From Escherichia coli (GTDB taxonomy: Bacteria; Pseudomonadota; Gammaproteobacteria; Enterobacterales; Enterobacteriaceae), in the NCBI RefSeq assembly GCF_017348835.2, contig NZ_CP071375.1: DNA of 64,000 bases; one strand, 5' to 3'. Below the pieces are notes generated by a model. The model had not been told where the DNA came from, did not search any database, and worked only from the letters and a program-made list of their open reading frames with translations. Shown piece by piece: positions 32,570 through 32,757 of this stretch (position 1 is the stretch's first letter; each line of letters starts with the position of its first letter). The translations under genes and the position numbers were made by a program.

Positions 32570-32710
32570 AAATCAGCTTCCTGTTATTAATGAAGTTAAT
32601 GCTTCTCATTTTCATTGTAACCACAACCAGATGCAACCCCGAGTTGCAGATTGCGTTACCTCAAGAGTTGACATAGTGCGCGTTTGCTTTTAGGTTAGCG
32701 ACCGAAAATA

Positions 32711-32730
32711 TAAATGATAATCATTATTAA
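32711..32730. promoter_or_regulatory. Fur box in the fepB / entC divergent promoter
   Basis: TAAATGATAATCATTATTAA, near-perfect Fur consensus core, read directly. Confidence 0.8.
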
Positions 32731-32757
32731 AGCCTTTATCATTTTGTGGAGGATGAT

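Follow-up and report, generated by a model that had tools for sequence, protein, structure and literature searches.

The fepB–entC junction of Escherichia coli is very probably a compact and fully occupied bidirectional control region, in which two back-to-back sigma-70 promoters, each with a Fur operator of its own, share an intergenic gap of 188 bp and fepB is expressed without a long leader. In the window (the whole 64,000-nucleotide stretch of DNA that was analyzed), the entC Fur box and the start codon of fepB are 141 bp apart, and this distance is wholly accounted for by a 31-nt leader, the fepB promoter with its Fur operator, an unconserved spacer of about 30 bp, and the promoter of entC. 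A reading made from the sequence alone had taken the same stretch of about 140 bp for a single fepB leader; it overlooked the Fur box at 32595–32613 and quoted it as leader sequence.

Divergent promoters of fepB and entC

The enterobactin gene cluster of E. coli lies in the window. A 391-bp query spanning the junction matched several E. coli chromosomes annotated fepB/entC with 100% identity and was present in 5417 of the 5426 complete genomes of the species, and the gene names given in the sequence-only reading agree with this annotation. The fepB coding sequence (31613–32569, minus strand), assigned from the open reading frame list and the annotation in identical E. coli genomes, encodes a periplasmic ferric-enterobactin binding protein of 318 residues with a GTG start codon at 32569–32567; entC (32758–33933, plus strand), the first gene of entCEBAH, encodes an isochorismate synthase of 391 residues from the ATG at 32758. 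The control region between them was characterized in E. coli K-12 by Elkins & Earhart (1989) and by Brickman, Ozenberger & McIntosh (1990). That Fur controls the synthesis and uptake of enterobactin is already known, from mapping that dates back to 1989–1990 and was followed by later work on a translational enhancer and on RyhB, and with a fepB leader of only about 31 nt, rather than a long and structured one, the arrangement in the window is an ordinary one.

Transcription starts mapped in K-12 (fepB at 623950, minus strand, with a 5′ untranslated region of 217 nt; entC at 624054, plus strand, with one of 54 nt; Kim 2012, Table S1) were transferred by exact matching of the K-12 51-mers that end at +1. 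Both 51-mers are present exactly and once each in the window, placing the fepB start at 32600 (minus strand) and the entC start at 32704 (plus strand), 104 bp apart. From position relative to these starts, we infer a fepB sigma-70 promoter (32608–32636, minus strand) composed of a −35 element TTGCAT (32636–32631), a 17-bp spacer, and a −10 element GAAAAT (32613–32608), with A as the +1 nucleotide, and an entC promoter (32668–32704, plus strand) composed of TTGACA (32668–32673), a 17-bp spacer, and TAGGTT (32691–32696), with G at +1. The entC 5′ leader (32704–32757, plus strand) is 54 nt long and has a Shine-Dalgarno (SD) sequence, GGAGG, at 32748–32752. The description of the gap as AT-rich holds for its two ends, where the GC fraction is 0.26 (32570–32600) and 0.24 (32704–32757), and not for its middle, where it is 0.39–0.55.

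For comparison, FepB was used to search species-representative genomes, which yielded 80 loci in Enterobacteriaceae. The fepB–entC distance, examined in 55 loci, is 187–188 bp in the great majority, including those of E. albertii, Citrobacter, Klebsiella, Raoultella, Enterobacter, Leclercia, Lelliottia, Kosakonia, Trabulsiella, and Phytobacter, which argues that the window has the ancestral form. An alignment of 56 sequences delimits conserved blocks on the fepB side at the start codon and SD, at 32597–32614 (Fur box, −10 element, and +1), and at GATGCAA (32630–32636, the −35 element), and on the entC side at GTTGACA (32667–32673, −35), TAGGTT (−10), the Fur box, and the SD. The fepB −35 and −10 hexamers are conserved at close to 100% in the 55 loci, while the spacer between them is not, and GTTGACA and TAGGTT of the entC promoter are retained across genera; the segments 32614–32629 and 32637–32666 are poorly conserved. 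This pattern is consistent with two promoters accompanied by their operators; a structured RNA would be expected to look different.

Between the two −35 elements lies an untranscribed spacer (32637–32667), which is poorly conserved in the conservation profile. Direct reading shows that it includes most of a perfect inverted repeat, TGCAAC-CCCGA-GTTGCA (32632–32648), whose left arm overlaps the fepB −35 element. The possibility that TGCAAC-N5-GTTGCA binds a regulator or forms a hairpin in RNA was rejected because it is untranscribed from the mapped starts and its arms are not kept as a palindrome in genera other than Escherichia; it may be fortuitous.

A 186-bp insertion and two forms of the fepB leader

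Alignment with K-12 (MG1655) shows one substantive difference from the window, an insertion of 186 bp in K-12 between positions 32596 and 32597. On the entC side of this point the two strains have exactly the same sequence over 32597–32800, a stretch that takes in both promoters, the operator and leader of entC, and the fepB operator as far as +4. The inserted element (L001:239–424) is GC-rich, palindromic, and MITE-like, with similar termini, and lies between +4 and +5 of the fepB transcript, next to two linked SNPs at −23 and −25 that also set K-12 apart from the window. Here the target site, TTAA (32596–32599, +2 to +5 of the fepB mRNA), is empty. The K-12 intergenic region measures 374 bp and its fepB leader 217 nt, against 188 bp and 31 nt in the window, and subtraction of the K-12-only 186 bp from 217 nt yields the 31 nt exactly. 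The long structured leader of K-12, which folds at −93.2 kcal/mol (z = −6.4), is thus a product of the repeat insertion. The repeat family, which we take to be of the RSA/box C class, occupies a median of six places per genome; an Rfam search of the K-12 element returned sub-threshold miRNA-hairpin look-alikes only, and a literature search for a family name found nothing usable. Within the window, a partial copy of the same family (78% identity over 91 bp) is present at 39898–39987, just after a 701-residue open reading frame ending at 39872, with a REP-like palindrome after it (about 39990–40020).

Counting a site as filled when a 306-bp query (the element with its flanks) was covered over at least 80% of its length, we found the filled site in 2725 of 5426 complete E. 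coli genomes, K-12 included; in the remaining genomes the flanks alone were matched (40%). The long structured fepB leader is an allele of about half of E. coli, and the empty-site form with its 31-nt leader, judged by its distribution across Enterobacteriaceae, is probably ancestral. In E. whittamii (L002:1040–1200) the element is found at the same site with its central palindrome deleted, giving an intergenic region of 288 bp, and this copy shares the two SNPs (−23 and −25, next to the junction) that are linked to the insertion in K-12. The shared SNPs may reflect an old insertion allele or recombination between species and, together with the internal deletion, suggest an old balanced or recombining polymorphism.

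Independent insertions of 44–156 bp, at approximate positions, were observed in the fepB–entC gap of Salmonella enterica subsp. arizonae (L069), Klebsiella grimontii (L032), and three further loci (L068, L017, and L051). Those of S. arizonae (about 120 bp) and K. grimontii presumably resemble ERIC/IRU elements, by comparison with ERIC primer sequences. Small repeats seem to have landed repeatedly in short leaders beside Fur promoters.

The nearly 50:50 leader dimorphism, of which our literature search found no description, is the only mildly new item in the analysis, and it would be of consequence only if FepB output were altered by the hairpin. One alternative to a functionally equivalent junction is that, without the 186-nt hairpin, fepB mRNA of the empty-site allele is translated or degraded differently, so that results obtained with the K-12 leader would not be quantitatively transferable; we consider this conceivable but doubtful. 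The two alleles divide E. coli about evenly and contrast a hairpin of −93 kcal/mol (z = −6.4) with a leader that is unstructured here, and the insertion begins at +5, inside the Fur footprint; however, the enhancer, SD, and RyhB region (−22 to +5) is identical in both alleles, and the fepB Fur box matches the consensus at 15 of 19 positions whether the site is filled or empty. The enhancer, and not the structured part, is said to account for the effect of the leader. By which route a difference might arise can be stated only tentatively: the hairpin of this dimorphic leader may alter Fur occupancy over +5 to +12, the stability of the mRNA, or the efficiency of the enhancer or of RyhB, giving a FepB output that depends on lineage, a chain of events that we hold to be rather unlikely. 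If it were true, FepB output under iron stress would differ systematically among lineages and K-12 would be an atypical model of the fepB promoter. In either case, the “long structured fepB leader” of K-12 belongs to the insertion allele, and caution is appropriate when it is transferred to other strains or when K-12 fepB/entC expression cassettes are used.

The fepB leader and translational control

The start of fepB is taken as unchanged in the empty-site allele, given the identity of −50 to +4 with K-12, and the fepB 5′ leader in the window (AUUAACUUCAUUAAUAACAGGAAGCUGAUUU, 32570–32600, minus strand) would then be 31 nt long. It is 74% A+U, with an SD sequence, AGGAAG, at 32582–32577 and an AU-rich tract upstream of it as a candidate translational enhancer. 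A leader described beforehand as unusually long is thus short by exact transfer of the mapped K-12 start, and its structured look is not borne out by folding: the minimum free energy of the 31-nt leader is −2.0 kcal/mol (z = −0.3). The string that had been put forward as leader, TTAATGAAGTTAATGCTTCTCATTTTCATTG, does occur once in the window, at 32587–32617, but it straddles the fepB start: 14 nt belong to the actual leader and the other 17 nt to positions −1 to −17; 17 of its 31 nt fall in the fepB Fur box, and its bulk consists of this second, footprinted operator (32595–32613) together with the −10 element. The AT-rich stretch beside fepB is accordingly better described as a second Fur operator and a promoter than as a leader. 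The sequence-only reading had held that a fepB transcript starting immediately upstream of its SD would contradict a long leader, and the transferred +1 at 32600 would lie just 18 nt upstream of the SD.

Transcription of fepB from near the entC Fur box, with a regulatory leader of about 140 nt of the riboswitch, attenuator, or sRNA-docking type, is in our judgment highly improbable. Promoter-like hexamers were found on the minus strand at 32750–32723 and 32742–32714 in a consensus scan, and a minor upstream fepB start is possible on this basis, but they sit within the entC Fur box, where matches of this kind are expected because the box is AT-rich and palindromic, and the only mapped K-12 fepB start corresponds to 32600. 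The long structured leader described in the K-12 literature (217 nt) lends this reading some precedent, but it derives from the repeat insertion, which the window lacks. The predicted fold of a hypothetical 141-nt leader is no more stable than those of shuffled sequences (z = −0.6); RNAalifold on the equivalent region of 29 species gave −0.27 kcal/mol with five pairs, none of them covarying; the intergenic region had no Rfam match with an E value up to 1; and the segments 32614–32629 and 32637–32666, which such an RNA would include, are unconserved. We rejected a long structured cis-regulatory leader of the riboswitch or attenuator type, having found neither a length of about 100 nt, nor excess stability, nor covariation or membership of an Rfam family.

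Post-transcriptional control, which the sequence-only reading proposed for this leader, does exist for fepB, but it is already published and is located elsewhere than was claimed. Hook-Barnard, Brickman & McIntosh (2007; J Bacteriol 189:4028) describe a translational enhancer in fepB mRNA, AU-rich and located 5′ of the SD, together with a limiting GUG start codon. A matching tract is present in the window, with an AU-rich sequence 5′ of the SD, a GUG start, and identity to K-12 from −22 to +5; unlike in K-12, it makes up most of the 31-nt leader and has no hairpin upstream of it. Directly 5′ of the SD this tract is A/U-rich and unstructured (74% A+U, −2.0 kcal/mol for the leader), and it is A/U-rich in all 29 species, although the sequence itself is variable.

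The second mode of control is repression of fepB translation by RyhB, demonstrated in K-12 by Ribo-seq, fusions, and compensatory mutations, in which fepB U−20 to G+5 pairs with RyhB C45 to A65 and the SD is occluded (Wang 2015; NAR 43:10308). The corresponding site in the window (32565–32589, minus strand; −20 to +5 relative to GUG) overlaps the SD and the start codon, and all of its 25 nt (32589–32565) are identical to K-12, with no difference detected from the published system. A duplex with the published segment of RyhB (nt 45–65) is predicted at −17.3 kcal/mol, and one between a wider fepB target and RyhB nt 35–69 at −19.3 kcal/mol, a value reached by 1.1% of shuffled targets; RNAduplex with full-length RyhB against a 61-nt target returned a non-specific long duplex, to which 14% of shuffles were equal. 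The complementarity to the RyhB core thus points to a RyhB target at the fepB ribosome binding site in the window, as is consistent with the repression shown in vivo in K-12. In the alignment, the SD region (columns 131–138) reads CAGGAUGC in most genera and CAGGAAGC in Escherichia and some Citrobacter; since this A-to-U substitution affects the central part of the pairing with RyhB, regulation of fepB by the sRNA may be confined to certain lineages.

Fur operators and iron-dependent control

Fur boxes were sought with the 19-bp consensus GATAATGATAATCATTATC, allowing up to four mismatches and using dinucleotide shuffles for comparison. Three Fur-like loci were found in the 64 kb (30261–30285, 32595–32613, and 32710–32728) against 0.07 such matches per window in the shuffles, placing the boxes well beyond chance. 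A scan at up to three mismatches reported 30261–30279 only and missed the fepB and entC boxes, since each of these has four mismatches. The entC Fur box (ATAAATGATAATCATTATT, 32710–32728, plus strand) matches the consensus at 15 of 19 positions, with a perfect central 15 bp, lies at +7 to +25 relative to the entC start, and is the box seen in the sequence-only reading. The string quoted there, TAAATGATAATCATTATTAA, occurs once in the window (32711–32730), 28 bp from the entC ATG (32758) and 141 bp from the fepB GTG (32569, minus strand), which agrees with the stated distances of about 30 and about 140 bp; “near-consensus” was somewhat generous for a match that is real and far above chance but would be better termed good. 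The fepB Fur box (GAAAATGAGAAGCATTAAC, 32595–32613, minus strand), identified in the mismatch scan, is an equally good match (15/19) and spans −13 to +6 of the fepB promoter; its GAAAATGAGA..GCATT block is invariant in 29 species.

These two elements correspond to the “two non-overlapping Fur boxes” of Pakarian & Pawelek (2016), of which box 1 (AAAATGAGAAGCATTATT) overlaps the fepB promoter and box 2 (ATAAATGATAATCATTAT) lies downstream of the entC +1; in the same study, the cloned K-12 region gave bidirectional expression under iron control from plasmids. Iron- and fur-dependent expression has also been shown for the fepB transcripts. Fur DNase footprints in K-12 extend over 623939–623969 (31 bp) at fepB and 624054–624102 (49 bp) at entC (NC_000913.2; Brickman 1990, with coordinates as given in Table 3 of Chen 2007). 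Carried over by alignment, they fall at about 32589–32619 (−19 to +12 of fepB) and at 32704–32752 (+1 to +49, within the entC leader), and the entC box lies inside the latter, in support of its being a genuine site. The sequence is the same as in K-12 for the entire entC footprint and for −19 to +4 of the fepB footprint. Since +5 to +12 of the K-12 fepB footprint fall in the insertion, the promoter-distal Fur contacts could differ here from those in K-12.

Experiments in K-12 have established the transcription starts, the Fur footprints, and the pairing with RyhB; transferred to the window by sequence identity, they would support the following scheme. Under iron sufficiency, Fe2+-Fur dimers would occupy the fepB operator over the −10 element and +1, thereby excluding RNA polymerase, and Fur would separately occupy the longer entC array (+1 to +49), blocking either initiation or escape. 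Iron scarcity would free the two operators, and entCEBAH and fepB would be transcribed divergently. The resulting fepB mRNA would have a 31-nt, AU-rich, unstructured leader, in which the tract just 5′ of the SD would serve as a translational enhancer offsetting the weak GUG start, while RyhB, an iron-starvation sRNA, would pair with −20 to +5 and trim translation. Translation of fepB would be intermediate, raised by the enhancer and lowered by both the GUG start and RyhB.

Fur is known to polymerize along DNA at some operators. Control of both genes from the entC box as one shared operator, by looping or spreading polymerization with the fepB-side AT-rich sequence acting as promoter only, would fit that property and the long, 49-bp entC footprint, but has very little likelihood given that two distinct protected regions are reported and treated as separate sites (Brickman 1990, as given in Chen 2007), that two Fur dimers bind to an isolated fepB oligonucleotide (apparent Kd, 8.6 nM; data of Lavrrar and McIntosh, in Chen 2007), that the 15/19 fepB box holds a block invariant across genera, and that about 85 bp of poorly conserved DNA with no likeness to a Fur site separate the operators.

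Two separate Fur operators, with back-to-back starts predicted to lie 104 bp apart, would be a feature that the window shares with K-12. The other divergent enterobactin junctions, fepA–fes and fepD–entS, are similar in combining a short intergenic region, opposed promoters, and Fur boxes. In those two, the promoters overlap and one Fur-binding region is shared, whereas the operators of fepB–entC are separate. The third Fur-like locus in the window (30261–30285) consists of overlapping matches with three to four mismatches on both strands, just upstream of a 416-residue open reading frame starting at 30359 (MFS-type, entS-like), and is presumably the fepD–entS divergent operator.
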